64,000 nt of DNA from Mesotaenium endlicherianum (Eukaryota), in contig WELA01003054.1 in the NCBI GenBank assembly GCA_009602735.1, positions 460,952 through 524,951 on the forward strand, given 5' to 3'. The translations under genes were made by a program, and so were the position numbers. This document shows positions 6,695 through 60,584 of this stretch, piece by piece. Each line of letters starts with the position of its first letter. Position 1 is the first letter of the stretch. The notes beneath the pieces were generated by a model. It ran no database searches and was not told where the DNA came from. It was given only the letters and a program-made list of their open reading frames with translations.

Positions 6695-7234
6695 TGTAGT
6701 GAAACAGATAGATAAAGTACTTAGTAAAACAGAATACTTTATCTATTCAAGACAAGGATCTTTGAACACAAGTGGTAGCTTCTTGAAAGAGAGATGGCTT
6801 CTTGAAAGTTAATATATTTCTGGATTTTGGCAAGTACAAGAGTGATTCTCGAATGTCTTTCTATGTTCTAGCTCTTGTTTATATACTTGCTACATAAGTA
6901 ATTTCTAGGAAGGTGTATGTTGATGTGTTGGCACCCAACACATCCCAAAACTTGCCACCTCTTTCTAGAATAATGTACACATGTCCTTTTGACCTAAAAA
7001 TGGCACATTTGACTTTTGCCACATGGAGTTCTTCTAGGTCTTTCCTCTAACTTCGAAAATGCCTTGGAAGGTTCAAAGGACATGAACCAAGTTACTAGAG
7101 TACCTATTCACACTTGACTCCACACAATACTACTCCAAATATATTTGAAAACATTAAAATATATGCAAACTAATATATAATAACTCAAATCACTACATCA
7201 CCCCCCCGATAGAAAAAGCGACGTCTCGGCGCGT

Positions 7235-22373: not shown

Positions 22374-24034
22374 TGTAAAGAATCAATGTATTTGTAAATA
22401 TAATATTTATTTAATTTATTTAGTTCAGTCTCTTGATATAATGATATGAGCGTTTTAGGCGTACTTCAGATATTTCCTTAAAATACCTTTAAATCGTTAT
22501 ACTTTTTGTTTGTAATTGCATAATAGCAATTTTATTGAATTGTCGCCACACACGCGTGTCGACTAATTGGGTCGAACGGCGCACGACCAAGAGGTGAATT
22601 GCAATTAATGGTACAAATTACTGCATTTACTTTGCAATAGGTAAAATTTAATCAATCATAACTTGATTAATTATAAAAGATTGAGTGAATCAATCAGCAA
22701 TTAATTACTTTTATTTGACTTTCATTGTTTTGCACAATGATTGTCATGGTTTTTGAGTTAACGACAATTGTTAACTCGACTGAAAACCAAACAAGGACAG
22801 TCCAAGTGTGTCGCCAGTCGGAATCAAACCCGAGACCTTAGGGCCGGGTCACTGCAATTCCGCGACACTCGCAAATCAACTTTGTATTTGTGGGGTTTTG
22901 GACCCCCGTCCCTCGATTAATTCCATCACATTTGACCGATTGGCCAAATGATTATTTATAACCAGTGGCTCATGCCAGATAATGTGTACGCGACCGCGCA
23001 AATAGTAGCAACTTTTTGAAAGTTGCGAGATCGCGAAAACGCCCGATTGGCGTGAAACAATTTTTCAGAAATCGTCGCGTAACCTTCAAACGGCCAAACG
23101 GCCTGTTTCGAGTATTTGGCCGAACGGGTTACACCCGTTTGCCCATTTTCCTTGAACGTGAACCAGTGCCCTAGCAGGTGACTCGAAGCACTCCAGTGCC
23201 TCATGTTGTGCAAGTATACATACTTGCAAGAGTCATTGTGAGTGCAACTTTTACAGCACGCATTCTCTACTTTGGATTTCTCTCACTAATGTATTCCAAG
23301 TAGTAGTACTTTTGCAAGTTGTCGGTATTTTCTCCCATTGAGCTATTATATACACTTGACTGCCGAGAAAAGATTCTTGAGATAAGCATAAACGTTGCAG
23401 TTGAACTTTAGTTAATATTAAGTTTGCTAAACTTTTTAGTAATATTTAGTATAATGACTCAGCCGGGTACGGTAGGCTGAGTCCACCAGAGGTCAGCTTG
23501 CTGACACATTCTTTGACGGTCAGTTGACTGCCGTACACGGAATCAATGAACTGCCCGTTATGCATCTAAATGTGATATGCTAGACGAGTACGCAGATGAC
23601 ACCCTTGGGTGGATGGCCATTCGAGATGATGGAAGATGGCTGTGGATTTGGTTAGCCGAGGTCCTACCGACGGGTAGGTGGTTCCATCGCACTTGCCATT
23701 GAACAGTAAACTCATTCCATGCACATAGGCTAGGTAATGCCCTCGAGTTTGGCATTCGGGAACGAGGCTAACTCTTTGTACAACTTACTGAGAGAACATC
23801 TGAATCCAAGGCTGCAAGACGTTACAGAAAGTGCTTACTATTCTTGCTTACGTATGAGTTTACTAATTGCATGATTGATGCTCGTAACTTGCATTTGACT
23901 TGTGAGTATTACTCTTGCTAGTTGTGTGGTCTTTACTGATTAATAAAATTAACCAAAATACCATGAAGATTACTTGCTGATATAAAGATCTTTTATCAAT
24001 TGTTAGTCGCCTATTAGTAAATCGATTCAATTCA
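22374..24034 (+). mobile_element. Diverged B-related solo LTR with nested D solo LTR
   Basis: tgtaaagaatca...gattcaattca; TSD TCAGT at 22369-22373 and 24035-24039; 23400-24034 aligns by eye with B LTRs. Confidence 0.85.
22437..23399 (+). mobile_element. Family D solo LTR (~960 bp)
   Basis: Interrupts the B-like LTR; ends tataatgat.../...cgttgca; TSD CTTGA/GTTGA; related to 11896-12234. Confidence 0.65.
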
Positions 24035-25069: not shown

Positions 25070-28000
25070 CACCAGATAGCCCAACGGAATGTATGCTCTT
25101 TGGCCCAACAACTACCTGCACTAGATATTTTTCTTAAAGCTCATTAATGGTCCAAATGACTTGTCTCTTATAGATTCTAGAAGGTCATATCACAATCTAG
25201 GTCACTATGCTTTTTATTTTCAAGGAGATGTTTTTTCTGCCCAAAAAACTTCAAAAAAAAAAAATATTTCAAAAAACGATCAAGAAAATTGCATACTTTG
25301 AGTGACTACCACACCCAATAGACTTGATTATAGAGTTTTTGATTTTTGCCAGAGTTGCCTATATGGGTAAGGACTGTACTTATAAAAATTCACAGTTTAA
25401 CTTCAACATCCTAGGAGTTGTAGCATTTGGGAATTGGAGGTCCCATTTGGCCCCTTGCTTTTTGCATGGCCCAACAAGAGAATTATTATCAGCTTCACAA
25501 AACACACTCTATCAAGCTCAATACAAGATCTTTGAATATGAAATTGAAGGATATGGTATGTAAGATAGCACTGTTTTTTAATAATATTTAATTTAAATTA
25601 ATTAAACAAGAAATACATTAAATAAGTCATTTCATCATATTTCAGGAGCAAATAGGAGCAATTTTTTATTTTTCATATAAAAAAATGGTCTGAATTTAAG
25701 AAGGCAAAACAAAGTTATACTACTGCTTTATAGACATAGCAAGAAGAAAATAAAATTGTTATAAAAAAGAATAGAAGTCGGGTAAAATCTACGACAAGTG
25801 CGCGTTATCGCCTACTTCTGCCCTTAATCCCTGACCTCCCTCTTATCTCCAACATCAAGGTGGTCTATCTGCCTCTCTGTATGATACCTCTGAAAGCACA
25901 TAGAGGGACACAAGAATACATTGCAAGGCTCACACATGAAGTGAACCTTAGGAGCTCTCAAGCCAGATGCACAAAGCCCAAAATTGCCTGTTGTACACAC
26001 TACGCATCGTTTCCTGTCCTTCACCTTTGCACGAAAATGCTTGTGAGTCCACCTTGCACCTGCAGCAATTGGGGTTGGGATAGTTTGGGTCACCACCTTG
26101 CTAGGGCCTTCATCATGGGGCCTGAAGTTGCACATGGCATCCATGATCTCCAAGTAGTTGTCAAACCTGTCTTCGTCGGGATGTGCCATCTTGTACAAGA
26201 TGCACACATTAGCAAGTAAGCCATCAAAGATTTTTCAGTAGGCCCTATGCCACCACTTTCTATTCACCAACACCCTCTCAATACTATAGTTTCTAGCTAG
26301 ACACATAGCATCAATTTGATCAACTGCATCCTTGTACAAGTTATAGTGTCCTACTAACTCTGGAGCTGGCAAAGACACTCTCCCTTTTCCAACACACCTA
26401 AGCTGAGTTTTGGGAGCCAGCCCCTTTGCTGTAGATAAAAATGCACAAGGCCTTTAATCATTCCATACACATGCAACCATAGAGGGGTGCTCATTGTATG
26501 CAGCTATTGAGTGGCCTGGATGGTGTGCATCAGGCTTCATCCACAACATGCCAGCAGGATAGTCCTTCCTATTTGTAACAGCAGTGCCTGTAGCTGCATG
26601 TCCCATCTTAGCTAGTAGTGCAAATAGAGGAGGTGAGGTGAAGCCTCTGTCTACCACTAAATTGAAGAAAGTACTTACGATAGTATACTCACTAAGTCTA
26701 GTACAACTTGTGTCTTTTGACCAGGAAACTTGATTCTGTCGTAGATTATGAATGCATAACAAAAGTCAGTAATGGCATCACAGATTGTGAATACTTTCAT
26801 GCCATACTTGTATGGCTTAGAAGGGTTGTACATTTAAATGGGGCATTGTCTTTTCCTGATGGAAATTGTTCTTTCATCTACATATAGATTGAGTCCAGGG
26901 CTGTAATACTGTGCAAAAGTTTTGTGGCAAAGGTCTGTGAAAGGATGCAATTGCCAAAGCTTATACTCTCTAGACTCTCTAGAAAAGCAATCACTGTACT
27001 TATTATCCTTCACATGAAAGTATCTTCTTATATCTTTGAACCTGTTTCTACTCATGAACCTACCAAAACTAGGAAGAGGAAGAGGGCCCTTCACACTCTT
27101 CTGCCAGTATTTACTGAGTCTTGGCAATGCATGCAGCTCCATAGCCATGCACAGGCCATGGAAAATGTCAATCTTTGTGGTAGTAACAGGCAGTCAACCT
27201 TTGGCACCACTCACAGAGGCATACCTATTGGTCTCAACAGTTAGGTGCTCAAAGATCCAAATAGGCATGAGCAGACAAAAGACTCCAAATGTAGAGAGAG
27301 CTCGAAACCTTCTATCCGAGATGCCAAATAGCCATGATGATTGCTCTTACTCAATTGCAGCAGCTTCTCATCATAGGAATGTCCAGCAGCTGCTGGCTGC
27401 CAGTCCCATACTTCTTCAACTTCTTCCTCCTGGGCCTCCTCCACTTCCACCATGCTAACAGCAATTGGAACATTGTCATCTTCTACCTCCTCGGATGAGC
27501 TGTCTCCAGATTGATCACTGCTCGCATCAGAGTCAGAATCTAATGCTACTCCCTTGCCCTTCTCACTCATGCTAGCCTTTTTGGTCTTACTCATAAACTT
27601 GCTCCTGAAAGCAGGAGCAATGATGTTCCTACTTCCAGATGGCCTGCCTCTCCTTCTAGGGCCCTCGGATTCAATAGTTTGACTGTCACCCAAGCTGAGG
27701 GGAGTGAGCTCTTCCTCCTCATGCATCTCAGTGTCAAGAATAGCTGTTTGAGACTCTCGGAATAAGGCCTTAGAGTCACGCTGAGAATCCGGCTGGGTCT
27801 CATCAGAAATCTGCTTGTAAACACCTACACTACTCTTCTCAAAGCCCACAGTAAAATCCCTCAAGTTCGTCAAGAGAAAAGACTTCAAATACTTGGGTCT
27901 AGTCTTGTCATAAGGGAAGAAAAGAGTGTAACTATCCTCTTGCCCTTTCTTTTGCTCACACTTCTTCTTCACATTTCCGCCTAAGAAAATGTCCTCACAA

Positions 28001-28400
28001 TCGTCCTTTAAATGGTCATACGCCCATGTCCGGCCAAAGAACACGGCCGGTACTAAGATTATGCACCCTAATAAGACGTCGCGAGAGCTGTCGTCGTCAG
28101 CCATGGTGGAAATACAAGAAGACACACAAAGAAGAAGAAGCTATTTCGGGTTGAACAGAGCTACTTTTGTTCAAAGACATTGATTTCTGCTATGTACGAA
28201 AAATGACCTCCCATGCACGCAATTTGTCGGTTGCCTCTCGCAATTTAATGGCAGATACCTTGTGATATAGGCTACCGTTCTAGACTATTTTCATAGAAAA
28301 CGAATAAATATTGAAGAATTCCGAGCATGTGCTAGAGGGCCAAGTAGTTAGGCCAAAAAATGACATATGGGCCATATGCGCCCCTCCGGGCCATCTAGTG
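25070..28400 (-). mobile_element. piggyBac DNA transposon, degenerate
   Basis: TIRs CACCAGATAGCCC (25070) and CACTAGATGGCCC (reverse at 28388-28400), 11/13 match; TTAA at 28401-28404 and TTAAA at 25065-25069; transposase inside. Confidence 0.8.
25824..28104 (-). pseudogene. piggyBac (PGBD-type) DDD transposase pseudogene
   Basis: FGRFMSRNRF..I.RYFH, YVDERTI (D1), KPYKYGMKVF, VVDRGFTSPPL..GT..NR (D2), YNLYKDAVDQID (D3), C-terminal RCVVC..MCEPCNVFLC..CFQRYH Cys-rich domain; several stops and frameshifts. Confidence 0.92.
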
Positions 28401-28728
28401 TTAAACTGTGACTTTGCTTACCACTTGTGAAGTTCTTTAAGTGACTGAAATCCAATTTAAGAGAGGTCGGATTGCTCCTCATAAGAGAGACTTGTGGCCC
28501 TAAATATACAAGAAAAAAAAGTGTCAACTTCATTAATACCTCTGTTACTTATAACTTGCCAACAAAGACTTATAAAATATGTTAAACTATGGACATCTTT
28601 AGAGCTTTAATCTCGGATAACCGGCAAGTGAGGCGCGGATTGAATGCCAGATCACTTTAAGAGGCCTCTCCTACGTCCACAAATGTGTTCAAAGGTTGTA
28701 CTAGCACTCAACTAAGTAGCTAAGTTGC

Positions 28729-29448
28729 TGTAATGAATCAGTATATTAGTTGATATAATATTCATTTAAATAATAAATTTAAATAAGTTCAGCCTGCTGA
28801 ACTTTAGTTAATATCGAGTCTGCTGGACTTTATTAAATCATCAGTTTAATGACTCAGCCGGAAGCAGCAGGCTGAAGTCAACTTCGGTCAGCTTGCTGAC
28901 AAATTCTTTGAAAGTCAGCTGACTTCCGTAGTCGGTCGCAGCAAACTGCCTAGATATGCATCTAAGTGTGGTGTGCTAGATGAATGGCCAGATGACATCC
29001 TTAGGATGGATGGCGATTCGGGATGATGGGAGATGGCGGTGGATTTGGTTAACCGAGGTCCTACCAACGTGGTTAACTCCCGGGTAGGCGGTGCCATCGC
29101 ACTGACCGTTGAACAGTAAACTCATTCCATGTCCATATGCTAGGCATTGCTCTCGAGTTTGGCATTCGGAAACGAGGCCAACTCTCTTGTACAGCTTACT
29201 GAGAGAGATCTGAATCCAAGGCGAGAAGCCATTGATACGCACTGTCTTCTAACCTTGCTTATGTATGAGTTTACTGATTTGCATTATTGATGCTAGTTTA
29301 CTCGCATTTGACTTACGAGTATTATTCACTGCTAGTGTGTTGTCCTTTGCCGTTAAACCAGTTAACGGAAAATACCATAAAGATTACTTGCTGATATAAA
29401 GATCTTTATTAATTGTTAATCGCCTATTTGGTAAGTCGATTCATTTCA
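28729..29448 (+). repeat. B1 5' LTR
   Basis: tgtaatgaatc...gattcatttca terminal inverted repeat; PBS follows. Confidence 0.95.
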
Positions 29449-29482
29449 GTGGTATCGGAGCTGTTATCACAGTCTTCTTTGT

Positions 29483-30961
29483 ATGGTAAGGACAAGGTCT
29501 CAAACTAGCAACTCCCGAGACATGGAGAACCAGGATAACGAGAATGTCAAAAACCAGGCGGAAAGCCATGTAGCGGGAACCCGTACCTATTCTGAAGCAG
29601 TGGCAGATAGTGCAGCTAGAGAGGCTGCAAATGAGGCACCTGCTATTGCCGCAGTCTCAGCACAGCGAGTTGAGGAGGAGAGAGCCAGATTAGAAGCTGA
29701 ACAATTAGCAAAGGCCGCTGAAGATACAGAAAGGAGGGAAAGACAGCCAGCTGACGAGCGCACTGTTGAAGAACTTATGGCATCAAGGGCCAATGTTCTG
29801 AACTCACCTCCTGTTGTACAACTCAGTGTACCCCTAGGTCAAATACGTGACCGGCTGAATGCGGCAGGAATTGCTGCTGCAGGAGCGAGAGGGACTGTTG
29901 AGGACACTACTCAGCGAGTAGAGGCCAATGCTGCTGCTGCATATGCTAATCTACCACACCAGAGTGTAGACTTGGGAGCATTGTTCGTTTAGATGCAGTC
30001 GCAAATGGCGACCATGTATCAGTCCCAACAGGAGGACAAAAGAATCATAATGTCCCTACTGCGGGACAGAGACCAACTGGGGTCTCAAACCACTAGTGGT
30101 GGTGGCCGAGGGCCTAGTAAGCCCAAGCCGAAACCTCCCCAGGACTATGATCCTGACGGAAACAAAAAATATCACCTGATCAAGTTTCTCGCGGATGTTG
30201 AGCAGTGGCTGGAGAACTACCCAGAACTGCAAGATTACGAGAAGGTCAGGCACACCGGTGCGCTACTGAAAGGCAGTGCCGCAGACTGGTGGCTTTACTG
30301 GAAGGAAGAGCGTAAGGCTCGGCAACTCGGTGACCCTACGTGGGTAGAGTTTGTCGAGAAGTTGCATGAGAAGTTTGATGTCATCAACCAGCAGGAGAAA
30401 GCTATCTATGCGATGATCTCCCTGACACTGAAGCAGACCACTTCAGTTGCTGAGTTTGCTCAAAAGTTCCAAGAGAACATGATGAAGCAGCCTGATTTGC
30501 CAGAACGGTATAGGATAGCATACTTCAGGTATGGCTTGAAATCCGAGGTCTCTGGTCATTTTGCTGAGAAAAAGTATGAGAAACTGGCTGACTTGATCCA
30601 GGATGCTGACGCCTGGGATCAGCAGCAGTTCAATCACAAGCGCCAGAGTAACGCTTTGGTGTCTAAGATTGTCAAAAAGCCCCACGGTTCCTACAATGCA
30701 GTTGAAGGAGACCAGGCTGAGGATAATCAGGGTGATGAATATGAGTATGAGTACAATGCTATTCAGTCTAGAGGTAGAGGTGGTCCCTCTCGAGGTGGCT
30801 ATGGAAGGGGTGGTGGTAGGACTAAGCCGAGACCAGCCTCAGCAAAATCTACTTGCTACCATTGTCAGCAGAAAGGCCACTACAGAGAACAGTGTCCGGT
30901 CAAGCACCTGCCTAAGGTCGAGAGAAAAGACCAGCCTTTAAAAGACAGCAACAGTCAGTAA
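29483..30961 (+). pseudogene. gag: B1 gag (one internal stop at 29990)
   Basis: KPKPPQDYD..LLKGSAADWW..LKQTTSV, CYHCQQKGHYREQC knuckle. The stop codon is CAG in copy B2. Confidence 0.93.
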
Positions 30962-30984
30962 TCCAGTCTACTGACTGTGAGGAT
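30937..30984 (+). promoter_or_regulatory. Family B -1 frameshift signal with probable pseudoknot
   Basis: T_TTA_AAA (30937-30943), 7-nt spacer, perfect 10-bp stem ACAGTCAGTA/TACTGACTGT; loop ATCC can pair with GGAT at 30981-30984. Identical in B2 (56407-56454). Confidence 0.8.
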
Positions 30985-33900
30985 GCTAGAGATAGTGAGT
31001 CGTCACTAGCTGCCCTCGTAGCAGGTATTATGGGTCCTGCTGAACTGGATTCACTATGCATGCCTGACAACCAGATAAAGGAGACCATCAGCAATATAGA
31101 CGTCCAGAGAGTGCACACTCTGGATGCTCTTGTTCCACCTGATGTCCAACATTTCTTTGCTACGTCAGGAGAACAATGCGAAAGTCAGGAAAAGACAGTC
31201 CCCCCTATCCTACTGCATTGCATGATTGCAGGTAGGAAGGTGAGGGCATTTGTTGACGGAGGGGCGTCACATACTTTTATCCACAAGGACTTAGTTAAGC
31301 GGCTAAGGCTGCCTACTGTCACCCAAGGGAATAGAAAAATATTCCTTGGAGATGCCTCAAGTATCCCGGGAGGAGTTATAACCAAGCCTATTGAGGTCCA
31401 GTTAGGTTCTGGCATTGCAGTTCTAACTGAAACGCTTACATTTGAGGTACTCAACACTGGCTTTTATGATCTCGTGCTAGGCAGGTCCTGGCTTAATAGA
31501 CATCAAGCTGAAGTGTGTTGGAGCAGAGGTACAGTTAAAGTGAGAGGAGCCAGTGATGGGCAGACTGACTTGGCACCCACCAGTGCTCTTCCTCTTGTCC
31601 TGTGTGGATGGCAACTGAAGGAAAAGAAGAGGCTTCCAGAAGGATGCAAGTTGCTGAATGCAATGGAGTTCGTCAAAAGCTGGAACCAGAAGGAAGACAG
31701 AATGTTTTGTCTGCTGCTAAAAGAGGTACCTCCTCAACCTGAACAAGTGGTTGCGAAAAAGGTAAGCCCTCCGGAGCACCCTATTGCTGCAAAAATTGTT
31801 GCTCAGTACACGGATGTATTTGATATGCCTCCAGGACTACCCCCTAAACGGGAAGTAGATCATAGGATTGATTTATTACCTGGTAGTCAGCCACCCTGGC
31901 AACGCACTTATGGCTTGTCCTATGTGGAAAGCGAGGAGTTGAAAACACAGATTGCAGAGCTTGAGGAAAATGGTTATATTTCTCCCAGTATATCACCTTA
32001 CGGCGCACCCATCCTATTTGTTAAGAAAAAGGACGGCAATATGCGGATGTGTGTGGATTACAGAGCTCTGAACAAAATTACGGTAAAGAACAAGTATGCC
32101 TTACCCAGAATCGAGGACTTGCTTGATACCCTGTCTGGTGCTAAAGTGTTCAGTAAGATAGATCTCAAGAGTGGTTATCATCAAATCAGAATTCCTGAAG
32201 GTGATGAACACAAGACTGCCTTCCGCACACGCTATGGACACTATGAGTTCAACGTGATGCCATTTGGACTGACTAATGCTCCTGCTACCTTCATGGGTGC
32301 TATGAATGACATTTTCAGACCTTATTTGGATAAGTTTGTGCAAGTTTTTCTAGATGATATTTTAATTTTCTCTAAAGATGAAGCTCAGCACACTGAACAT
32401 TTAAAGACTGTCCTGGACTCTCTGAGGAAGAATCACTTATATGCTAAAATGAGCAAGTGTGATTTCTTTAAGGAAAGTATTGAACTCTTAGGCCACGTTG
32501 TAAGTAAAGAGGGCATCAGTGTGGATCCTAAGAAAGTCCAGACCATAAGGGACTGGCCAGTACCACAGTCGGTCTCTGAAGTTAGATCCTTCCTCGGGTT
32601 GGCTAACTACTATAGGAGATTTATTGAGAATTATTCCACAAAGGCCAGTAAACTGACTGACCTTACTAAGAAAGACATAGGGTATGTGTGGGGGGAAGAG
32701 CAGCAGGCTGCCTTCCAAACCATTAAAGATGCCCTTTGTTTTGCCCCAGTGCTAGCCGTGTATGACCCCAGCAACCCCGTGCAGGTGGTCACTGATGCCT
32801 CTGACTTTGCCATGGGTGCTATTTTGTTGCAGCTTGCTGACAAGACCACAAAGGATGGTAAGGTACGGCAGGAGTGGCATCCTGTGTTGTACGAGTCTAT
32901 GAAATTTAATCCAGCAGAGATTAATTACTCAGTGCATGATAAGAGCTGCTAGCTATCATTCATGTGCTCAAACAGTGGAGAGCATACTTACATGGTAAGG
33001 CCTTTAAGGTGATTACAGATCATCTAGCTCTGACCCACTTTCAGAAGAAGTCCAAGCTGTCGAGGAGGGAGAACCGCTGGAGCCAGATGCTGGAGCAGTT
33101 CCAAGTCCAGATCGACTACAAACCAGGGAAGTTGAATCCTGCTGATGCACTCTCTAGAAGACCTGACTTGCAAGATACGAACTTTAGTCAGCATGCTGTA
33201 GATAAAGTCCTGTGTGCACTCACTTCACTACAGGTGAAAAAGTCCTTCCTTGAACAACTTAGGAAAGCCTACCTTTCTGATCCAACATTTGAGCCCAACC
33301 CCACTACTGGTGTGTGTTGTGCTACTGCACTCGGGTATAAGCTGAAGGGAGGGGTCTGGGTGACTGAAACCACATCAGGCAGGCTGAAGCTGGTCATTCC
33401 TAATAACTTGGAAATAAGGTCTCTCTTACTGAGTCAAGCGCATGACAGTCTCCTGGGGCAGGCCAAAACTGTTGGCAAACTGGCAAAACATTATCATTGG
33501 GAGGGATTACCCTGGGAGGTCTTGAAATATGTCAACACCTGTGACCAGTGTCAGAGAAATAAGTCTCGGCACACACCACCCGGAGGTCTCTTGCAACCAC
33601 TGTCCATCCCAGCTGGACGCTGGGAAACTATATCCATGGACTGGGTGGTCTCACTACCAAGAACTGCCAATGGGCATGATTCCATACCGGTAGTCGTGGA
33701 TAAATTGACAAAAATGGTCATTTTTATCCCCACAACTGTCAAAGTGACTGCACTCGAAACAGCGAGACAGTTCTACAACCATGTAGTATGCCAACATGGG
33801 CTCCCTTCTAATATCATCTCAGACAGAGACTCAAAATTCACCTCTAAGTACTGGAGAGCTTTAATGGGGTTAATGGGAGTCCAACAGCTGCTCAGCACAA

Positions 33901-34750
33901 CAAAGCACCCTCAGACTGATGGCCAGACTGAAAGAACTAACCGAGTTCTGCAGGATGTGCTGAGAGCATATATTAACCAAAAACAAAATAATTGGGATGA
34001 CCTGTTGCCTCAAATTCAGTTTGCGGTCAACAGTGCGGTGCACGCGTCAACGGGCAAGACTCCTTTTGAACTCAGCCTGGGTAGAGTCCCTAAGTCCCCT
34101 CTAGATGTTCTGGGGGAGTCTTTAACTCACCCTGAAGGGATTGACAATCCGGTCTCCCTCCAGTTAACCCAGGAGTTTGCTGACACCCTGTCAAAAGTCC
34201 AACAAAACCTGCACAGAGCCCAAACAAACCAACAAAAATACGCTAATCAACATCGTCGGGAGCTGACATTTTCTAAAGGCGATTTAGTCAAACTGCATTC
34301 TCAGCACCTGTACCTCCCTGGTGTGGTCAAGAAAAAGCTTGGCCCTGTCTGGGTCGGTNCCCTGTGTGGGTCGATCCATGTTCGGTGGTGCGTCGTGTCG
34401 GTCAGAATGCTTACAAACTGAACATGTCAGCCGAATACAAGGGTCACCCGGTCTTTAATGTCTCCTTCCTGAAACTCTATATCAAAGGTGATACACTGTT
34501 CACAGGTCGGTTACCTGTCCAACCGGGAACGGTCCCCGCTGTCCGGGACGGCGATCCTGAGGAATATGAGGTCGATGAGATTTTTGACGCTCGCTCGATC
34601 CGTCGATCGTCTAAACATGTCATGAAGTACCTCATCCGATGGAAGGGTTACGGTGCCTCTGGGGACACTTGGGAATTTAAAGACCAGCTGACCAATGCCA
34701 AAGGGGCGTTAAAACGGTTCCACCTTCAGGCGGCTGGGGCACCGCCCTAA
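30940..34750 (+). pseudogene. pol: B1 pol (protease, RT, RNase H, integrase, chromodomain) with frameshifts
   Basis: [72 protein letters not shown]. Confidence 0.95.
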
Positions 34751-34954
34751 CTGTCCCTTCAGTAGACATGGGAAGGTGACAGGAGGTCCTGTCTCCATAT
34801 AAGTGGAGGGGAATGTGACAGTTGTGACAGGCAGCCCACCTTTAAAATTAAGTTGGAGGGAGTGGTAGTCTCTGATCACCATGTTACCCACTCAACCTGC
34901 GCTCACACTCACTTGCTCTCCAACTCAATTTTTCCTTATATTCGCTCACACCAG

Positions 34955-35062
34955 GTATTCCACTCTAGGAACTCTCCCGATCGCGTCCCTCTTCATCAAG
35001 GGCACTCAGTAGCGGCAAAATATCATGACTTCACTAACTGCATTGTGTTTATGATTGAGCAG
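34955..35062 (+). promoter_or_regulatory. Putative intron / splice acceptor upstream of ORF3
   Basis: CAG|GTATTC donor, CACTAAC branch point (35032-35038), CAG|G-ATG acceptor. Same layout in B2 at 60482-60583. Confidence 0.6.
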
Positions 35063-35063
35063 G

Positions 35064-36740
35064 ATGACTCAAAAGTCGGAACTCAAGAGGAAGAGAAGGG
35101 CGGAAGAGGCACATGCAGAATACTTGCAATTCCGTGGAGACATCGAATCATCTTCCATCACCGCTCGGGAATCACAACGACTCCAACAACAGCGGGAGGC
35201 ACAGAAGAAGAAGGAGGAGGAGGAACAGGCCAGACTGAGGCAGGAAGAAATGGACAGAAAAGCTGCAGAGGAGGCCAAGAAAGCAGAGGAGGAGAGGCAA
35301 GCTGAGGAGAAGCGGAAGTAGCAGGCTGAAGAAGAGGAACAGAGGAGAATCAGCAGCTACCGCTACACAGTGCTGGGCAAGGGCTTTGATCTACTGGAGG
35401 AGGCCTTCAAGTATGCCCAGAGAAGTCGCAGTGAGTCGCAGAAGGAAATCCTCCAGAGGGAAGGGGAGACATCCGAAAACTTTGACAAGTATATAGAGGT
35501 TAGCACGGGGCTCCTCCTCTACCATGATTATGCCAGGATGGTAGGGTATACGGTCAGAGAGGCCAAGGCAATGGCCCAGGTGAACGAAGCAGGGGCTGTC
35601 TCGATTCCTGGTATCTGGGGGGAAGATAGGGTCATCAGGATGATCCCCATGGACGCGGACAGCTTCAAGGACTCAACACCCCATAACAGGTTCGAGGCCA
35701 TGTACAATGAGGTGGAGAGGAGGAGCTGGGAATTCTTGGCCAGAGAAACCAGTCAGCTGGACTTTGCAGGGCACTGGTACCCTTGTACTCTTAAAAGGAC
35801 AGACCCTGCCTTCTTCCAAAAGCCCACCGATTGGCGGTGGATGACCATCAACATGAGGGACCGGCAGAATGACAGGGCGACGGATGAGGATTTCCTGACA
35901 GACCTAAAGGGGAACATAGTATTGCCCCCTCACATTGCGGCTTGGGACCCAAGATTGGATGGAGTCAGAGACTGCATGAGCCAAGAGATGCAGGGGGACA
36001 GAAGCTGGGCCCGAGAGTCATTCTCAAAAGGGAAGCACGCTTATGCCAAATAGGCAAGTAAGCAGGGGGAAAAGGACCTCTATGCGGTCCGGACTCAGCA
36101 ACCCCCACCAGCACCCAAAAGGGGAAGGTCCGTAGGATNCGTAGGATATTCTTTATCTCGGGAAGAGCTGGAGCAGCTGACAGAAGAGACCCCAGAAGTC
36201 TCAGAGGAACCCGGGGACGGCGAGGAGGAGGAGTCAGAGTAAGACGAGGAGGAAGGCGAGGAGGAGGATACTAGTCCCGTCGTGATCCTGACACCTGCCA
36301 CATCCCCTGTAAGGGAGAAGACGAGGTTGGTCCTGCAGCAACTCGCTGAAGAGGAGGATATCACTTGGCTGGGAACTGCCAGAGGACAGAGCCCATCTGC
36401 AGACACGGAGACCCCGTCAGACAGAGCAGACAGAAGGGTTGCTTGGGAGATAGCCAGAGGCCTGCCAGCATCTCCCTCGCAGAGAGGGCATGTACCCTTG
36501 GCTCATGTCATGCAACATCCTTCCGGGATGCCGGTATACATACCTATCAGTTTGAGGGCTGCCCAGGAGAAGGCTGCCTCCCTTCAGTTTCAGACTGTGC
36601 AGGAGGAAACAGCCCAGTTACTGCGTTCTCCGCCGGGTCCTTACACGCAACCTCTCTCTCTGACAGGCTTCAAAAGACCCCAAGACAGGAGGAGGTCTGG
36701 CTCCCCTGAGTATTGGGCCTCAGGGACATCTCCCTCCTAA
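35064..36740 (+). pseudogene. Family B accessory ORF3, variant a (~555 aa, unknown function)
   Basis: A single reading frame across ORFs 35055, 35370 and 36282, with only point stops (35319, 36051, 36240); homologous to variant b in B2. Confidence 0.85.
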
Positions 36741-36825
36741 TGGCAGTAGGCTGGGGACGGAAGGGACAGCACGCTGTTATTAGTGTTAGTGTTGTCGAGG
36801 CGACAACATGATATGGTGGAGGGAT

Positions 36826-37539
36826 TGTAATGAATCAGTATATTGGTTGATATAATATTCATTTAAATAATATAGTTAAATAGCTTGCTGAACTCTAGTT
36901 AATATCGAGTCTGCTGGACTTTATTAAATCATCAGTTTAATGACTCAGTCGGAAGCAGCAGGTTGAAGTCAACTTAGGTCAGCTTGCTGACAAATTCTTT
37001 GACAGTCAGCTGACTTCCGTAGTCGGTCGCAGCGTACTGCCTAGATATGCATCTAAGTGTGGTGTGCTAGATGAATGGCCAGATGACATCCTTAGGATGG
37101 ATGGCGATTCGGGATGATGGGAGATGGCGGTGGATTTGGTTAACCGAGGTCCTACCAACGTGGTTAACTCCCGGGTAGGCGGTGCCATCGCACTGACCGT
37201 TGAACAGTAAACTCATTCCATGTACATATGCTAGGCATTGCTCTCGAGTTCGGCATTCGGAAACGAGGCCAACTCTCTTGTACAGCTTACTGAGAGAGAT
37301 CTGAATCCAAGGCAAGAAGCCATTGATACGCACTGTCTTCTAACCTTGCTTATGTATGAGTTTACTGATTTGCATTATTGATGCTAGTTTACTCGCATTT
37401 GACTTACGAGTATTATTCACTGCTAGTGTGTTGTCCTTTGCCGTTTAACCAGTTAACGAAAAATACCATAAAGATTACTTGTTGATATAAAGATCTTTAT
37501 TAATTGTTATTTGCCTATTTGGTAAGTTGATTCATTTCA
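36826..37539 (+). repeat. B1 3' LTR
   Basis: Nearly identical to the 5' LTR; follows PPT GGTGGAGGGAT. Confidence 0.95.
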
Positions 37540-37839
37540 GTTGCTCAGCTAAGCACAACTCAAACCAATTGACACTAGATGCAAGAAGATGCCAAGAGCT
37601 CCTCAATGGTTAAGTTTATTTTGACAAACGCTTCCTAAATAGTGCCTAAAAAGTGAATCTAAAACTTGGGGAAGTTTTCTTAGCGGTAGGTGATGCAACC
37701 ACCATTTTATAGCTAGTTTGGTGCACTTCAACTATGAAAATAGAAGAATAATGTGTCGTAGGGAGCTCGCGGATTTCTGCGTAAGTAGAGAGCCTCCTTT
37801 GAGATCGCAAATAGCCCAAAATGTGACCTTGGTGCAAGT

Positions 37840-42477: not shown

Positions 42478-44225
42478 TGAAATGAATCAACTTACCAAAT
42501 AGGCGATTAACAATTAATTAAGATCTTTATATCAGCAAGTAATCTTTATGGTATTTTCCGTTAACTGGTTAAACGGCAAAGGACAATACACTAGCAGTGA
42601 ATAATACTCGTAAGTCAATTGCGAGTAAACTAGCATCAATAAAGCCAATCAGTAAACTCATACATAAGCAAGGTTAGAAGACAGTGCGTATCAATGGCTT
42701 CTTGCCTTGGATTCAGATCTCTCTCAGTAAGCTGTACAAGAGAGTTGGCCTCGTTTCCGAATGCCGAACTCGAGAGCAATGCCTAGCATATGTACATGGA
42801 ATGAGTTTACTGTTCAACGGTCAGTGCGATGGCACCGCCTACCCGGGAGTTAACCACGTTGGTAGGACCTCGGTTAACCAAATCCACCGCCATCTCCCAT
42901 CATCCCGAATCGCCATCCATCATAGGGATGTCATCTGGCCATTCATCTAGCATGCCACACTTAGATGCATATCGAGGCAGTTCGCTGCTACCGAGTACGG
43001 AAGTCAGCTGGCTGTCAAAGAATGTGTCAGCAAGCTGACTTAAGTGGACTTCAGCCTGCTGCTTCCGGCTGAGTCATTAAACTGCTATTAAATATTAAGT
43101 CCAGCAGACTGATTATTAACTAGTGTTCAGCAGGCTGAACTTAATTAACTATTATACTGAATATTATATCAACTAATATACTGATTCATTACAATCCCTC
43201 CAACTTAACTTGTTGTCGCCTCGACAACGTTAAACTGCAAAGCCTTAAATAAAGTGATTGAACCTGACCAGCCTCCCTTACTGACTGCCTCTTCAGCCTG
43301 TCACCTTAAGGGGTTGTTCCTGGGGCTTCAGGATCAGGAGACGGAGATCTGGACCTGGATCTGAACAGCCCTCTAGGTCTGTCAGCTGACCTTCTAAAGA
43401 ACCCTGTTTGCTCTAAAGTTGGACCTCGAGGAGAACGAAGGATAGTAGCCTGCTCTTCACCCACTTGGGTGTTGATCCCCACATAGACAGGCATTCCAGT
43501 AGGATGCTGAAATACATTGGCTAGAGGTACATGCCCTTGAGCGGAGGGGGAGGCCGGCATACCTCTGGCCCACCCGCGTGTCCCTCACCTGGCACTCTTG
43601 TCCTCTGGGGACTTCTGCCTGTGTCTGCTGCCCAGTACAGTCAGATCAGCTTCTTCCCCTGCTTGGGCAGGTGGGCTGGGGGAGCGAGCGCGGGGTCCAG
43701 TAGTCGCCATAACGGGGATCACATTCCAAATACCTGATCGTGGTTCTTTAAGAGGCGCCCCTACCTGTCCCTGGGTATCCTGAGTACCTGCTGCTGATGC
43801 TTCTCCTCTGCCCTGTTCTTCTTCCTCAGCCTCCTCATCCTCCTCCTCGGAGACAGTAGGGGTCTCGTCCACTAAGTCGTCCTGCTCCCTAGTAGACATG
43901 GAGTAGTCTACCGACCTCTCTTTCTTAGGGCGCGCTGGAGGTTGCTTGGCCTTCAGCCTGCTGATATCTATCCGGCCTGCATTCTTTGCCCATTTGACAA
44001 AGGCATGCTTTCCCTTCGAGAAGTAGTCTCTTCCCCTCCTCCTATGCTCCTTGGTCTCTGCATTCATATTGCTCAGGCATCCATTCAGCCTCGGATCCCA
44101 AGGGGCAATGGGAGGTGGTAGGATGAGATAGCCGTCTAGGCCATAGTGGAAGTCATCTGGTTGGGCTCGGTCACACTCCTGCTTCTTATTTGTGACGGTC
44201 ATCCACCTCCAGTCTGTTGGCTGCT
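42478..44225 (-). mobile_element. Family B copy B2, 3' part (3' LTR 42478-43193, PPT, ORF3b C-half)
   Basis: B LTR plus PPT; TSD CTACT pairs with AGTAG at 54194-54198. Confidence 0.92.
43306..44220 (-). pseudogene. ORF3 variant b, C-terminal half
   Basis: PTDWRWMT..LPPPIAPWDPRL..FSKGKHA..GMPASPSAQGHVPLANVFQHPTGMPVY; joins in frame to 60585-61343. Confidence 0.85.
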
Positions 44226-45497
44226 TGTAGTGAAACGGATAGATTAAGTACTTAGTGAAATATAATACTTTATCTATTCAAGACAAGGATCTTTGAACAC
44301 AAGTGGTAGCTTCTTGAAAGAGAGATAGCTTCTTGAAAGTTAATATATTTCTGGATTTTGGCAAGTACAAGAGTGATTCTAGAATGTCTTTCTATGTTCT
44401 AGCTCTTGTTTATATACTTGCTAAATAAGTAGCTTCTAGGAAGGTTTATGTTGATGTGTTGGCACCCAACACATCCCAAAACTTGCCACCTCTTTTTATA
44501 ATAATGTACATATGTCCTTTTGACCTAAAAATGGCACATTTGATTTTTGCCACGCGGAGTTCTTCTAGGTCTTTCCTCTAACTTCGAAAATGCCTTAGAA
44601 GGTTCAAAGGACATGAACCAAGTCACTAGAGTACCTACTCACACTTGAATCCACACAATACCACTCCAAATATATTTGAAAACATTAAAGTATATGCAAA
44701 CTAATATATAATAACTCAAATCACTACATCATCCCCCCGATAGAAAAAGCGACGTCTCGGCGCGTCAAGTCAGGTCTTACACATGTGGAGCAAACTAGTC
44801 AACAGTTTCAAGTCAGATGCCACACATGTGAAGAGGACTAGTCAAAGGCGCCAAGTCAGGTGCTACACATGTAAGGTAGACTAGGCAAGGTCGTAGGTGG
44901 TGTGACCTTATTGGCTAGCCTACTCCTTAATGATAAAGAAAATTGTACAAGTTGGCCCAGAATCTGCCACAAATTCAAAAATTCATAGCGGCCACAGAAC
45001 TGCTCCAAATTTAAAAATTTGAAGGCCAGACGGACCGCGTCAAGAAACTCTACCGGGTCACCAAATTTGAGAGCATTCTAATATCTGGAGTGTCGTTGAG
45101 AGCTGAGAGAGTAGGCACTCCTCCAAATCTGTGCAGAAACTTCTGAAAAGCATAAGTCCTTCTATACTTCTCCAAATGCTGCAAAATAAGTCTCAAACTG
45201 GGCGTTGAAAGATGTTTTACCAGAGTCTTGAGTTTCAGAGCATTCCAAGATCAGGGAAAGGCACAATGTCAGAAGGCATATTCTGCCCTAACAATGCCAG
45301 CAGCCTGACCCCCTTCTACTTAGAGCATCATATCTCTCTCACCAGTGCTCCAAATTGAGCAAACGTGGACTCTAAATGACCAACTACTCATGGTCTACAG
45401 CCAGGTAAATTTACAGAATTTATTATGCAGAGACCTATCACCAGTAGCAGTTTTAGTTTTCTGTCCAGAAACTGCGAGAAGAGAAGAGTGTCTAATG

Positions 45498-48327: not shown

Positions 48328-51300
48328 TCAAGCTTCCAGATCTGTCTTCAGGGATACCATCACTGCATTTAATTGCAGTCTTGAGAGGGGGTCAGCCGGG
48401 TTTGTCTTGCCGGGCTGGTACTGAATCGTGATGTTGTATTGTTGCAAGTATCCGCTCCATCTTGCTTGTCTCCTTGAGAGATACGGCTGCGTTTGGAGGT
48501 GCTTTAACGCCTCGTGGTCCGTGGTGACCAGTACTTTGCGTCCTTCAACGTAGCAGCGCCAAACCTTCAAGGCATGTACAATCGCCAATGCCTCTCGCTC
48601 CGTGGTTGTATAATTTTGCTCGGCTGGATTTAGCTTCCTTGACTCGTAGGCGATGGGCTGCAGTCCCTTGCCTTGGTCTTGAAGCAGGATTGCTCCTATT
48701 GCATAGGAAGATGCATCGGTGATGACGTGGAAGGGCCAATCTGGGTTTGGACTTGGGAGTGTGAGCACCGGGGATGTGGTCAATCTTCGCTTTAACTCTT
48801 GAAATGCCTCTTCCTCTTTCTCGGTCCATGTATATAGCCTGTCCTTCTTGAGTAGATCTGTCAGGGGGGCTGCTATGTGCGAGAAGCCTTGGATGAATTT
48901 TCTGTACCAATTGGCAAATCCCAAGAATGACTGGAGTTCTTTCTTGGTCGTGGGGGTTGGCCATTCCTCCACCACCGTGGTCTTCTTGGGGTCCATCTTG
49001 ATGCCATCAGCAGTCACGTGGAGACCTAGGAACTCCACTTCTTGTTTGGCAAACTCGCACTTTGACTCCTTCGCAAATAGCTTGTTTTGCTTCAATACTT
49101 CAAGGACTTCTTTCAAGTGTCTCGCATGCTCTTCAAGGGTCTTGCTGTAGATAAGGATGTCATCGATGAATACCACCACAAATCTGTCCAACATGGGCTG
49201 AAATATGGTGTTCATCATAGTCATGAAAGTTGCTGGCGCGTTGGTGAGTCCAAATGGCAGGACCATGAACTCAAAATGTCCATATCTTGTCCTGAATGCC
49301 GTCTTCTCTATGTCCGGTTCTGCGATGCGAATCTGGTGGTAGCCGCTCCGTAAGTCAATCTTCGTGAAGTACTTGGCTCCAACCAGCCGGTCCATGAGCT
49401 CATCCATGCGCGGCAGCGGGTATCGATTCTTGATGGTGATCTTGTTGAGGGCGCGATAGTCCACACACATCCTCAAGGTACCATCTTTCTTCTTGACAAA
49501 TAGCACCGGGGCTCCAAATGGCGACTTGCTAGGTCGAATGAAGCCATGCTCCAGTAGCTCCTTGATTTGCTTCTTGACTTCGTCTAGCTCCGTGTATGAC
49601 ATTTTGAACGTAGGCCGAGAGATGGGCTTGCTTCCGGGCTCCAACTCTATCTTGTGGTCTACGAATCTTTTGGGGGGTAGGCCCTTGGGCAATTCCGGGG
49701 AGAACACTTCTTTGTAGTCCTCAAAGACTTCTTGTATCTCCTTGGGAACGGGGCTGCCTTCTTGACTCTCGATGTCTTTCTTGATGTCTTTTGGCGTGAT
49801 CAAGGCCAAAAGAAGCTCGTGTCCCTTCCTCACAAGTCTCTTGAGTTGGAGGGCGGACAATAGTATCTCGTGTGCCGGCTTCTGGATGTCTTGGGTCTGG
49901 ATATTCTGGATTGCGCGCAAAATACAGATTCTTGAAGTGATGTCATTCTTGATCTTGATAGTACCGGTCCTCCAATCAACTTGGGGGTTGTGCTTGGTCA
50001 ACCAAGGCGTCCCTAGGATGACGTCGTACTTGCCCAATTGCATGGGGGAGAACACTACTCTATCCTTGAAGGACTTGATAGAGAGTGCCAAGGGGTACGT
50101 CTTCTTGGAAGGGGTAGTATAGGAGAATCCATCGGGCATCATAATCTCCTCGTCGTGGTCAAGAGTTCGCATAGTAATACCGTGCTTGGTGGCGAAATCT
50201 GCAGCAATGAAGTTGCCTTGAGCTCCGCTATCCACCAAGATGTGGACCTTCTTTCCTCCAAGGTAACCTCTCAAACTCATTGGGGCTGGAACGTCGTCTT
50301 CAACGGGAGTCTCCACCTCACTTGGCTTGTTGTCTTCTCGTGAAGTGGGTCTTGGGGTGGTAGGCTCCTGGCCTACCGGCGCTGTTCGTTTTTTTGACAA
50401 CTTTTTGGGGCATGACAGTGCACGATGGCCCTTTTCCTTGCAATAAAAGCATAGTCTCGCCGTCATGAGAGCTTCTTTTTCAGCCGGGGAGAGTCTTCCT
50501 TTCACTCGTTGCTGGTTTCTTGCATCATAAGTGTCATTGGAGGGTCTTCCACTATTCCGAGCAGCCGCGGGGTCCCTTTTAATAACTCCGATTTCCATGG
50601 GTGTGGGTCCAGATTCTGATGTGGAAGGGGCTGCGTACACCCGCGTCGTCGGAACCCGTGAAGATGGAGGCACGGAGTGCTTGAAATCCAAGGTATCCAC
50701 CTTTTGGGCCAAGTGTCCAGCATATGAGCAATCATGATGCTCCGCAAGTAATAAGTCTCGTAGCTCCTTGATGTCAGGTACCACCACTCTCTTGGAATCA
50801 CCATAATACCATATGCCGTCCTTCTTCTGCATACTTGAGTTGGACTCAGCTGCTCCACCATCAGCAAACTCTGGGTCCTCCTCATAACCTCTCTGAAGCT
50901 TCTCCTTGAAGTCCATACTCTCCTTGATGACCGAGACAGCTGCAAGGTCACACCTCCTGGATAAAGCGTCTGCAGGGTTGATCTTCCCAGGTAAGAACTC
51001 AATCTTGTGGTCGAACTGTTGCAGAAACTCCATCCACCTTGCCTGTCTTGGTGTCAATGTTAGCTGCGTCATAAACTTCACCAAGCTCTTGTGGTCGGTC
51101 TTGATGGATACCTTTCGGCCGTCCATATAACATCGCCAAATCCTCAAAGCCTGGATAACAGCCAACATCTCCCGCTCGTGTGCTGCATAGTTTTGCTCAG
51201 CAGGACTCAACTTCCTGCTCTCATATGCCACAGGCTGCAATCCTTTGCCCTGTTCCTGGAGAAGAATGGCTCCCACTGCGACATTTGATGCTTCCGTGAT

Positions 51301-52632
51301 GATGGTGAAAGGAAGCTCTGGACTTGCAATTGCCAACACAGGTGCCTGTGTCAACAGCTCCTTAATCTTCTCAAAGGCTTGCTGCTCCTTGTCACCCCAT
51401 AGCCACTTCTCCTGCTTCTTCAGCATGTCTGTGAGCGGTGTACATACCTTGGCAAATCCTTCAATGAAACGTCGATAATAATTCGCCATGGCGAGGAAGC
51501 TTCTGAGTTGATGAATACCAGCAGGTACCGGCCAATCTCTGACTGCTTGCACCTTCTTCTGCTCCACCTTGACTCCTTCAGCTCCCACTATGTGCCCAAG
51601 AAACTCGACCTCCTTGAGACAGAAGTCGCACTTGCTCATCTTCCCATACAGCTTCTGATCTCTCAAGACCTCCAACACCTTCCTCAGATGCCCCACATGC
51701 TCTTCCAAGGTCTTCGAATAGATCTGGATGTCGTCCAAAAATACCACCACAAATTGGTCCAAGTAGGGACTGAAGATACTATTCAAGAGTCCCATGAATG
51801 TAGTAGGTGCATTCGTCAACCCAAAAGGCATGATTGTGAACTCGAATAACCCATAGCGAGTCCTAAGAGCAGTCTTCTGAATGTCTTCTTCCGCAATCCG
51901 TACCTTGTGATAGCCACTCCTCAAATCGATCTTCGAGAAATACTTCGCCCCGACAAGCCTGTCAATCAACTCGTCCACTCGTGGAAGTGGGTACCTGTTC
52001 TTGATGGTGACCTTGTTCAGTGCCCGGTAGTCGACACACATCCTCATAGTCCCATCCTTCTTCTTCACAAATAAGACTGATGCTGCAAATGGAGACTCGC
52101 TGGGTCGGATGAATCCCTTCTCCAATAACTCTGTCAGCTGCTTCTTCAACTCGTCCAACTCCGTAAACGATTGACGATAGGCGGGTCTCACTGGTGGCTT
52201 GCTCCCTGGTTCCAACTCGATCTTGTGCTCCATAGCTCTCTGTGGAGGTAATCCTGTACGTAGCTCCTTAGGAAACACGCACTCGAACTCCTCCAACAGC
52301 GCCTCAATCTGGGCAGGCATCTCAGCAGGCTTCTTCTCTTGAGCAGTTGGGCTTTGCTCCTTTTGAGCAAGGGGATTAAACACCACTACTTGCTCCTCCG
52401 GCGATGTATATTCGCCCAGGCTGTTAGGATTCACGCTTGCTCCATCTGATGACCTGGCCAGGGCCACCGAAACAAGGTACATCTCCTTCACCTGATTTGC
52501 CCTGCATAGCTTCTTAACTTGCAGGCTCGACAGAAGACAGTTACTTGTGGTCGTATCTACCTCCACCTGTTTCGCTGTCTCCATTCGACCATCACGCCCT
52601 TGGACTTTTACTTGTCCTGTGCTCCAGTGCAC
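48328..52632 (-). CDS. pol: Chimeric 1434-aa ORF: C RT-RNase H and start of integrase zinc finger, fused to A gag tail, protease, RT, RNase H
   Basis: Two RT motifs (FLDDIQI, FIDDILI), two RNase H domains, junction [18 protein letters not shown] at 50710/50711. Product of the inversion; expression doubtful. Confidence 0.85.
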
Positions 52633-60255: not shown

Positions 60256-60584
60256 TGTCTCCATTTAAGTTGGAGGGGAAAATATATGACAGTTAGTGAG
60301 TGAGAGCGATGAAGGGACAGTTACGTGAATCCTAAGTGTCAGCATAGTGACAGAGGGGACAGCCTGGCCCACATAAAGCACCTTAAGCGGAAGGAAGGAA
60401 CTTAACTCACCCTCAAACACATTCATATGTTTATGCTTAGCGCACCGCAATTACGTCAACTTTTAGCAATCACCCTGTAAGGTAAACAGGAGCAAATCCA
60501 CTATACTAATACTAACATACTTCCTGCAATCCCTATGACAAAGGTCCATATCCTACTAACTTGTGCCCTGGTTACATGTGCAGG

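Follow-up and report, generated by a model that had tools for sequence, protein, structure and literature searches.

Extra open reading frames (ORFs) are common in the long terminal repeat (LTR) retrotransposons of plants, and reviews describe their functions as unknown (PMC7264820). As reported by Neumann et al. (2019, PMC6317226), ORFs of at least 250 codons outside the polyprotein occur in 3372 Ty3/gypsy elements and fall into 314 mutually dissimilar groups, 21% of the extra-ORF proteins overall match a known domain, and the authors doubt that many extra ORFs have any function. Sense-strand 3' ORFs have been treated mainly as envelope-like, and the envelope-like ORF of barley Bagy2 is described as being expressed from spliced RNA (PMC7264820). 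Here we describe a sense-strand ORF, designated ORF3, that follows the polyprotein of a chromovirus of Mesotaenium endlicherianum. The DNA analyzed, referred to below as the window, is a stretch of 64,000 nucleotides (nt) (GenBank assembly GCA_009602735.1, contig WELA01003054.1, positions 460,952 to 524,951 of the forward strand); all coordinates are positions within it, and the three copies of the chromovirus family concerned (family B) are called B1, B2, and B0. The original prediction for this DNA held that chromoviruses normally carry only gag-pol, which is too strong, since, of 782 Tekay chromoviruses, 18% have a sense 3' extra ORF of at least 250 codons and 33% have a 5' extra ORF (PMC6317226, Additional file 5). 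The same file records no sense 3' ORFs in Reina, Galadriel, CRM, Chlamyvir, or Tcn1, and Tekay is the only chromovirus clade for which this type of ORF (aORF-3S, or eORF-3'F) is on record.

A nonenvelope product of a Ty3/gypsy element has been studied in Caenorhabditis elegans, where the env position of Cer1 encodes CERV, a nuclear protein of 517 amino acids described as having a KRKK nuclear signal, a leucine zipper, and S/T-P phosphorylation (Sun et al. 2023, PMC10309623). According to that report, a spliced mRNA, whose consensus acceptor lies upstream of the AUG, is the source of CERV, the unspliced genomic RNA (gRNA) depends on CERV for its export, and CERV has no homologues beyond the genus. 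Within the chromoviruses, the 5' extra-ORF proteins of Tekay elements (sunflower Tekay 13-2 and those of grasses) are described as conserved and as carrying a predicted nuclear signal (PMC11728184).

Conservation of the ORF3 frame

ORF3 is very probably a real, selected accessory gene. In B1 it occupies positions 35064 to 36740 on the forward strand (558 codons plus stop); it lies past the chromodomain stop and ahead of the polypurine tract, shares its strand with gag-pol, and uses a frame that is separate from that of the polyprotein and opens at 35055. The gap between the pol stop (34750) and the start of the 3' LTR (36826), which is where the published sense 3' extra ORFs are found, is 2075 bases long, and the ORF3 frame occupies 1677 of them. 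Read through three in-frame stops (35319-21, 36051-53, and 36240-42), its 558 codons exceed the 250-codon minimum of that class; one further codon (36138-40) contains an N, at 36139, there are no frameshifts, and the longest uninterrupted piece is 243 codons. The other five frames over 35064-36740 contain 13 to 21 stops each, compared with the 3 internal stops of the ORF3 frame. Since the sole tandem repeat within ORF3 is an 18-nt unit present 2.5 times (35265 to 35309; 45 nt), the open frame is not a repeat artifact.

B2 carries a homologous ORF3 in the same position as that of B1, with 45 to 50% protein identity, and represents a second cassette type. Its first 253 codons (60585 to 61343, forward strand) are cut at 61344 by a nested LTR element, and its last 304 codons plus stop (43306 to 44220, reverse strand) are followed by the B2 3' LTR (43193-42470). 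The interruption falls at ...YYQQ/PTDWRWMT... and is accompanied by a 5-bp duplication, AGCAG. The B2 frame also contains three in-frame stops (60630, 60861, and 43585), one N, and no frameshifts. B0 is a C-terminal remnant of a B1-type ORF3 (6243 to 6694, reverse strand) that keeps the last ~150 codons, shows 87% DNA identity to 36282-36785, has one frameshift near its end, and is truncated at 6695 by a nested LTR. When B1 ORF3 was compared with the window by tblastn, the B2 halves (E values of 6e-45 and 2e-53) and B0 (3e-55) were recovered, and no fourth copy was found; a weak match of the C-terminal block inside the pol of another family (E 0.03 to 0.08) was dismissed as chance. ORF3 is present in all three window copies that retain the region, and it is also present in contigs of four other organisms. 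The original prediction had placed a sense-strand ORF after the chromodomain stop and before the polypurine tract in every copy retaining this region, with point stops and no frameshift in the full variants, and both descriptions hold; the B1 translation contains all of the motifs that it had listed, and B2 contains those that are shared. Its third copy, B0, is real, but the strand (minus) had been left unstated, the frame does contain a frameshift, and the bounds are 6243-6694.

The insertion in B2 belongs to another chromovirus family, with LTRs at 61344-61846 and 44226-44728 (regions 61339-61846 and 44221-44728). The two halves of B2 are now opposite in orientation and ~17 kb apart, which could be due to an inversion within the nest or to an assembly effect.

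The B1 and B2 frames could be aligned over 516 codons, with 56 to 57% DNA identity at the protein identity given above. Between B1 and the first half of B2 (238 codons), differences were counted at 108.9 of 147.8 synonymous sites (proportion of synonymous differences, pS, 0.74) and at 195.1 of 566.2 nonsynonymous sites (the corresponding proportion, pN, 0.345). Between B1 and the second half (272 codons), 149.8 of 191.0 synonymous sites differed (pS 0.78), and pN was 0.333. The synonymous sites are saturated, and each indel between the two frames comprises whole codons. Free drift to this depth would have preserved neither the frame nor as many as half of the residues, and we therefore conclude that the ORF3 protein has been kept by selection; as judged from these codon counts, a pN far below a saturated pS shows long-term purifying selection on ORF3. 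The idea of a selected protein, put forward in the original prediction, is borne out by this comparison of nonsynonymous and synonymous change (dN/dS) between B1 and B2, in which pN was 0.33 to 0.35 and pS was 0.74 to 0.78.

Contigs of runs X5, X7, X9, and X13 (four other organisms) were compared with B1 over 35000-36800. These contigs have a sense codon at all three B1 stop positions, which indicates that the stops are private to the B1 copy. The differences listed include 37 inside ORF3, comprising 17 synonymous changes, 17 nonsynonymous changes, 3 changes at the stops, and no new stop; 38 more differences exist, and no contig is claimed to be open from end to end. Among the differences listed, the lone indel is an in-frame one of 9 nt, and 17 of the 34 substitutions are synonymous, compared with an expected share of 0.22 to 0.28 (binomial p 0.003).

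The elements that carry these two diverged frames are themselves closely related. An alignment of their LTR and gag-pol sequences shows 94.9% identity between B1 and B2 across 6120 columns (synonymous divergence, dS, 0.08 to 0.09; dN/dS ratio, omega, 0.2 to 0.33), and the two LTRs of each element are 96.4% (B1) and 96.8% (B2) identical. Over the ORF3 cassette (34806 to 36790, forward strand), B1 and B2 are unalignable as DNA, whereas its flanks are 93 to 95% identical. In a sliding comparison, identity of at least 0.85 fell to 0.2 to 0.6 past about 34806-34840, ~60 to 90 bases after the pol stop, and similarity returned at 36791, at a small hairpin just before the polypurine tract, so that the cassette consists of ORF3 with ~230 nt upstream and ~50 nt downstream. 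Because ORF3 is saturated while gag-pol is ~95% identical, ORF3 is an older block set in a young common backbone. The simplest reading of these alignments is that the cassettes would have been exchanged by recombination between copackaged RNAs. A contig of run X6 (organism B) is B1-like up to 34804, beyond which it matches B2 exactly (60271-60300); thus, both cassette types occur in organism B too. The contig depth of B1-type ORF3 was ~1/5 of that of gag-pol in X5 and X6, depth being a poor measure of copy number, and this lower depth fits the presence of several cassette types on one backbone. The original prediction had recognized the ORF3 copies but had missed both the exchange of cassettes on 95%-identical backbones and the restriction of the B1 stops to that copy. 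The arrangement amounts to a natural experiment in which the same gag-pol and LTRs are joined to two very different ORF3 alleles. Silent-site saturation and 45 to 50% protein identity on 95%-identical backbones separate selection on the protein from recency of copying, and they make an unusually clean argument that one orphan extra ORF is a working gene.

The predicted product and its possible roles

The predicted ORF3 protein (all parts on the forward strand in B1) begins with a basic patch, KRKRR, followed by a stretch of ~90 residues, abundant in E, K, R, Q, and A, that would form a long helix; this part (residues 1 to ~98; 35064 to 35357) has 36% identity between the cassettes with the same composition. 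An aromatic-rich core of ~240 residues follows (residues 95-329, YRYTV ... FSKGKHA; 35346 to 36050), which contains many invariant aromatics in invariant blocks, has 45 to 50% identity to B2, and is the most conserved part of the protein. The linker (36054 to 36270) contains a second basic patch that is conserved between cassettes (PKRGRS in one and PKKERS in the other) and an acidic tract with a net charge of -19 in 40 residues. A C-terminal block, G.PASPS..GHVPLA.V.QHP.GMPVY, with an R/S/P-rich tail (36384 to 36737) is common to B1, B2, and B0. AlphaFold2, given a 4-row full-length alignment, modeled residues 1 to ~98 as one long helix (predicted local distance difference test [pLDDT] values of 75 to 92), with residues 100-133 marginal, the remainder below 50, and a mean pLDDT of 44; the core run by itself on a 3-row alignment had a mean pLDDT of 35. 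The basic patches, the acidic tract, the S/T-P sites, and the R/S tail together suggest a nuclear protein, which the original prediction had considered probable, and in the model the ~98-residue charged helix may serve in multimerization or as a spacer.

Membrane helices usually exceed ~1.6 in 19-residue hydropathy. The maximal Kyte-Doolittle 19-residue mean in ORF3 is 0.64 to 0.73 (B1 and both B2 halves), with no transmembrane-grade stretch, and the N-terminus is polar and charged, with no signal-like sequence. Since it has no membrane segment, the ORF3 protein is almost certainly not an envelope, and in this respect the original prediction, which had seen neither a signal peptide nor a transmembrane segment, was right. 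The N-terminal helical region would suit an envelope-like protein of the kind found in Athila, SIRE, and errantiviruses, but given these hydropathy values and a charged N-terminus without a signal peptide, such an identity is barely credible.

Searches for relatives of ORF3 returned only noise from Pfam down to E 1, no relative from NCBIfam or PHROGs, and, with E values as high as 10 allowed, no match among PDB sequences to either the profile or the C-terminal piece. When 5.8 billion proteins were searched through a word index with the ORF3 core as the query, nothing was found at lengths of 30 to 977 residues, longer proteins, including polyprotein fusions, being outside the range of that search. 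With B1 pol as the query, there were thousands of relatives, the best of them 45 to 60% identical and annotated as unclassified proteins of Closterium, Chara, Tanacetum, and Solanum; as seen from the pol search, the 5.8-billion-protein database contains plant and algal proteomes, including retrotransposon proteins of the plant lineage, and no close relative of family B was present among the pol matches in it. Two pieces of ORF3 gave no usable match in the ESM Atlas, none of the pattern matches to ORF3 in metagenome, viral, and prokaryote-genome contigs was confirmed by tblastn, and ORF3 showed no similarity to the gag of B1 itself. ORF3 is therefore an orphan, a statement that holds only at the search sensitivity reached. 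The Pfam, PDB profile, and AlphaFold runs assigned no family or fold, in keeping with the unknown function stated in the original prediction.

Motifs that could allow expression of ORF3 lie directly upstream of its AUG. A candidate branch point, ACTAAC, is followed after ~25 bases by a predicted 3' splice site, GCAG/G, that abuts the start codon (GCAG/GATG; 35033 to 35063, forward strand) in both cassettes. In the B1/B2 alignment, both cassettes keep ACTAAC ... GCAGGATG upstream of the AUG, and the remaining upstream region is not conserved. GGTAAGT is present 13 to 19 bases from the LTR end in 7 of the 8 LTR copies and could act as the donor for an ORF3 mRNA. Production of ORF3 from a spliced subgenomic mRNA is predicted only, on the strength of these motifs. 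Another candidate donor, ATG/GTAAGG after the gag AUG (29485), was dropped, since its joining to the acceptor puts an out-of-frame AUG before ORF3.

Poly-A RNA of organism A was represented by two runs, which were read to ~6% and ~12%. The reads accumulate over the leader and the 3' part of the LTR (29269-29547; depth 26 to 41); at the LTR end (29448), 39 and 58 reads pass into unrelated sequence, and 21 and 11 depart at 29547. Such a pattern resembles read-through, from particular LTR copies or variant elements, more than RNA of the full-length element. A consensus-like 5' splice site is also present inside the reverse transcriptase (RT) region (AAG/GTAAGC in B1, 31759-31767; AAG/GTAAGT in B2, 57229-57237). 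Nine X24 RNA reads break right behind 31761 and continue in sequence absent from the window; X5 and X6 contigs also end at 31764, and the break may be a DNA variant rather than a result of splicing.

We propose that the ORF3 protein would be soluble and nuclear and would act on the RNA of its own element, as CERV does in gRNA export, and that it would be made from a spliced subgenomic mRNA via the acceptor directly before its AUG. In our analysis, a CERV-like, nuclear RNA-handling accessory protein expressed in this way is the most likely single mechanism, with a probability of roughly 0.35. RNA handling was chosen because CERV is the sole nonenvelope 3' ORF product of a Ty3/gypsy element with a tested function found in the literature searched and because CERV and ORF3 match in position, size, and feature set. 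If the proposal is correct, RNA-export regulators would be a recurrent Ty3/gypsy solution, found both in animals and in the plant lineage.

Several observations weigh against this proposal. The GCAGG upstream of the AUG may just as well be translation-start context (with an A at -3), just two sequences having been compared, and pyrimidines make up only 0.5 of the sequence ahead of the B1 acceptor. In the two RNA runs of organism A, ORF3 was covered at a depth of 0 to 3.4, by what seem to be low-complexity matches, and no read joined a leader donor to 35063 in runs that barely cover the region; moreover, none of the RNA datasets was listed as containing ORF3. No RNA-binding, double-stranded-RNA-binding, histone-chaperone, or DNA-binding domain was recognizable in ORF3 by comparison with Pfam and PDB sequences, nothing in the databases searched matched it in sequence, and its feature set would fit a chromatin or antisilencing protein, too. 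Within the B1 lineage, constraint on the C-terminal part of the protein also seems weak: omega is 0.6 over 124 codons between B1 and B0, both of which are dead copies, and past residue 440 there are 2 synonymous and 8 nonsynonymous changes among the differences listed.

A protein that counters host silencing by small RNAs or DNA methylation, with the two cassettes as arms-race alleles, is possible but doubtful. The presence of two ancient cassette types on near-identical backbones in at least two organisms and the nuclear-looking features of ORF3 would suit it, and precedents have been discussed, in that modulation of RNA silencing has been proposed for the sunflower Tekay extra-ORF protein and an antisilencing protein of VANDAL DNA transposons is cited in the same account (PMC11728184). 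However, nothing in the ORF3 sequence indicates a silencing target, Pfam recognized no double-stranded-RNA-binding or other domain, and divergence between the cassettes is mostly purifying rather than diversifying, with pN far below pS. The acidic tract, with basic patches on either side, and the fact that the element already targets chromatin through its integrase chromodomain (Pfam E 2e-8) would be compatible with a chromatin or integration cofactor, binding histones or the preintegration complex and aiding nuclear entry or target choice. We consider this unlikely, since Pfam and PDB sequences revealed no histone-chaperone or DNA-binding domain and the most conserved part of the protein is the aromatic core and not the acidic tract. 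Also unlikely, though broader in scope, is that the element is a "complex" retrotransposon in which a spliced subgenomic RNA would yield ORF3 as either a regulator of the Rev/CERV type or an antagonist of silencing, with two ancient alleles maintained on one backbone and swapped as a self-contained cassette; were it so, ORF3 would be a modular host-interface gene, comparable to the swapping of retroviral envelopes.

Two further explanations deny ORF3 any role in the element cycle. The GC content at third codon positions of ORF3 (0.62; core, 0.68) is above that of gag-pol (0.45 to 0.56), and gene capture by LTR retrotransposons is documented (PMC7264820), as would be expected of a host gene transduced long ago and passively carried, whose conservation would then stem from its host function or from the period preceding capture. 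This origin is nonetheless improbable, given that the 5.8-billion-protein search, over lengths of 30 to 977 residues, yielded no homologue of cellular origin and that two cassette types at the same site have been kept as protein, within the element, across saturated silent divergence. A noncoding origin, in which ORF3 would be an open stretch that arose by chance or has decayed, is more improbable still: no window copy is intact, ESM Atlas gave low recognition scores (1606 and 1129), and AlphaFold is unsure of the core, but across more than 500 codons pN is far lower than pS, third-position synonymous change is in excess, the stops are private to the B1 copy, and the indels are of whole codons only.

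The B1 element and its surroundings

In the window, Ty3/gypsy retrotransposons that bear chromodomains form a nest. Each of its long ORFs with a Pfam match encodes gag, protease, RT, RNase H, integrase, or a chromodomain, and an Rfam search over the whole window returned zero families. B1, with all of its features on the forward strand, is a complete Ty3/gypsy chromovirus with an LTR pair, a 5-bp target duplication, a primer binding site, a polypurine tract, and domains in order. The target-site duplication, GTTGC, lies to the left of B1 at 28724 to 28728, with the same 5 bases at 37540-37544. The 5' LTR (TG...CA; 28729 to 29448) is 96.4% identical to 36826-37541 over 722 columns, and 3' of it is the primer binding site TGGTATCGGAGC (29450 to 29461), which we take to be tRNA-Met-like. 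Gag-pol, split into several frames, extends from 29483 to 34750 (Pfam E 7e-11 to 7e-41), with the Pfam order Ty3_capsid, zf-CCHC, aspartyl protease, RVT_1, RT_RNaseH, Integrase_H2C2, rve, SH3_Tf2-1, and Chromo. At the 3' end, a hairpin (GTTGTCG-AGG-CGACAAC, 36791-36807) and the polypurine tract GGTGGAGGGA (36815-36824) form part of the backbone (36791 to 36824) and precede the 3' LTR (TG...CA; 36826 to 37539), which is followed by the target duplication. The perfect 7-bp hairpin upstream of the polypurine tract is common to B1 and B2 (43212-43228, reverse strand), whereas B0 differs.

The chromodomain is at the integrase C-terminus, at about 34565-34723, and presumably retains the three aromatic-cage positions (Y, W, and Y, with positions as in HP1). 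The B1 gag/pol overlap is 46 bases long (30916-30961), with pol in the -1 frame; B1 thus has the 'GAG:o:PROT' layout, yet it has a tRNA-Met-like primer site instead of self-priming. In the account of Neumann et al., this overlap layout prevails in Tcn1, and a three-residue aromatic cage is described, among chromoviruses, only for those of nonseed plants and algae (PMC6317226).

Other sequences in the nest are less closely related or lie outside family B. An LTR at 23402-24034 is 76 to 79% identical to the family B LTRs and hence belongs to an older or sister family, and tblastn found no ORF3-like sequence next to it. The stretch to the left of B1 is AT richer and contains two open frames, 27241-28140 (reverse strand, 299 codons) and 25740-26219 (forward strand, 159 codons), neither of which had a Pfam match. 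An uninterrupted frame of 1443 codons at 48328-52659 (reverse strand) contains two RT and RNase H sets (two stretches of each in Pfam) and crosses a junction near 50711 between two chromovirus families, which points to a chimeric or recombinant pol.

Comparison with described accessory proteins

As far as our literature searches show, the extra-ORF class is known, and the ORF3 protein family, the selection on it, and its behavior as a cassette have not been described. ORF3 shares with the envelope-like ORFs of Athila, SIRE, and errantiviruses the position of a third sense ORF after pol, but those products carry transmembrane segments, and ORF3 has none. It resembles the sense 3' extra ORFs of Tekay elements in position, orientation, length of at least 250 codons, lack of a tandem-repeat origin, and lack of a recognizable domain. 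As far as their published description goes, the extra ORFs of Neumann et al. differ from ORF3 in that neither purifying selection nor cassette exchange on one backbone is reported for them; in addition, ORF3 matched nothing in the databases searched, and B1 has a gag/pol overlap and an apparent three-residue aromatic cage.

The Tekay 5' extra-ORF proteins, as they are described, are like ORF3 in being family-conserved chromovirus proteins with few helices, long low-confidence regions, and no similarity across species. They are encoded upstream of gag, are proline rich, and are mostly disordered, whereas ORF3 lies downstream of pol and has a conserved aromatic-rich core of ~240 residues.

CERV, by its published description, differs from ORF3 in gene structure, since it is encoded by five exons and shares its N-terminus with gag, whereas ORF3 is a continuous frame with its own AUG. 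CERV also has a cysteine loop and a GTPase-like domain, neither of which is visible as a motif in ORF3. In other respects the two are alike. Both are nonenvelope proteins of ~520 to 560 amino acids encoded in the env slot, with a K/R patch resembling a nuclear signal and S/T-P sites; both diverge fast and have homologues confined to a narrow host group; and in both the N-terminal region is helical or a zipper, the middle domains are globular, and a consensus splice acceptor, a candidate one in the case of ORF3, lies just before the start codon.

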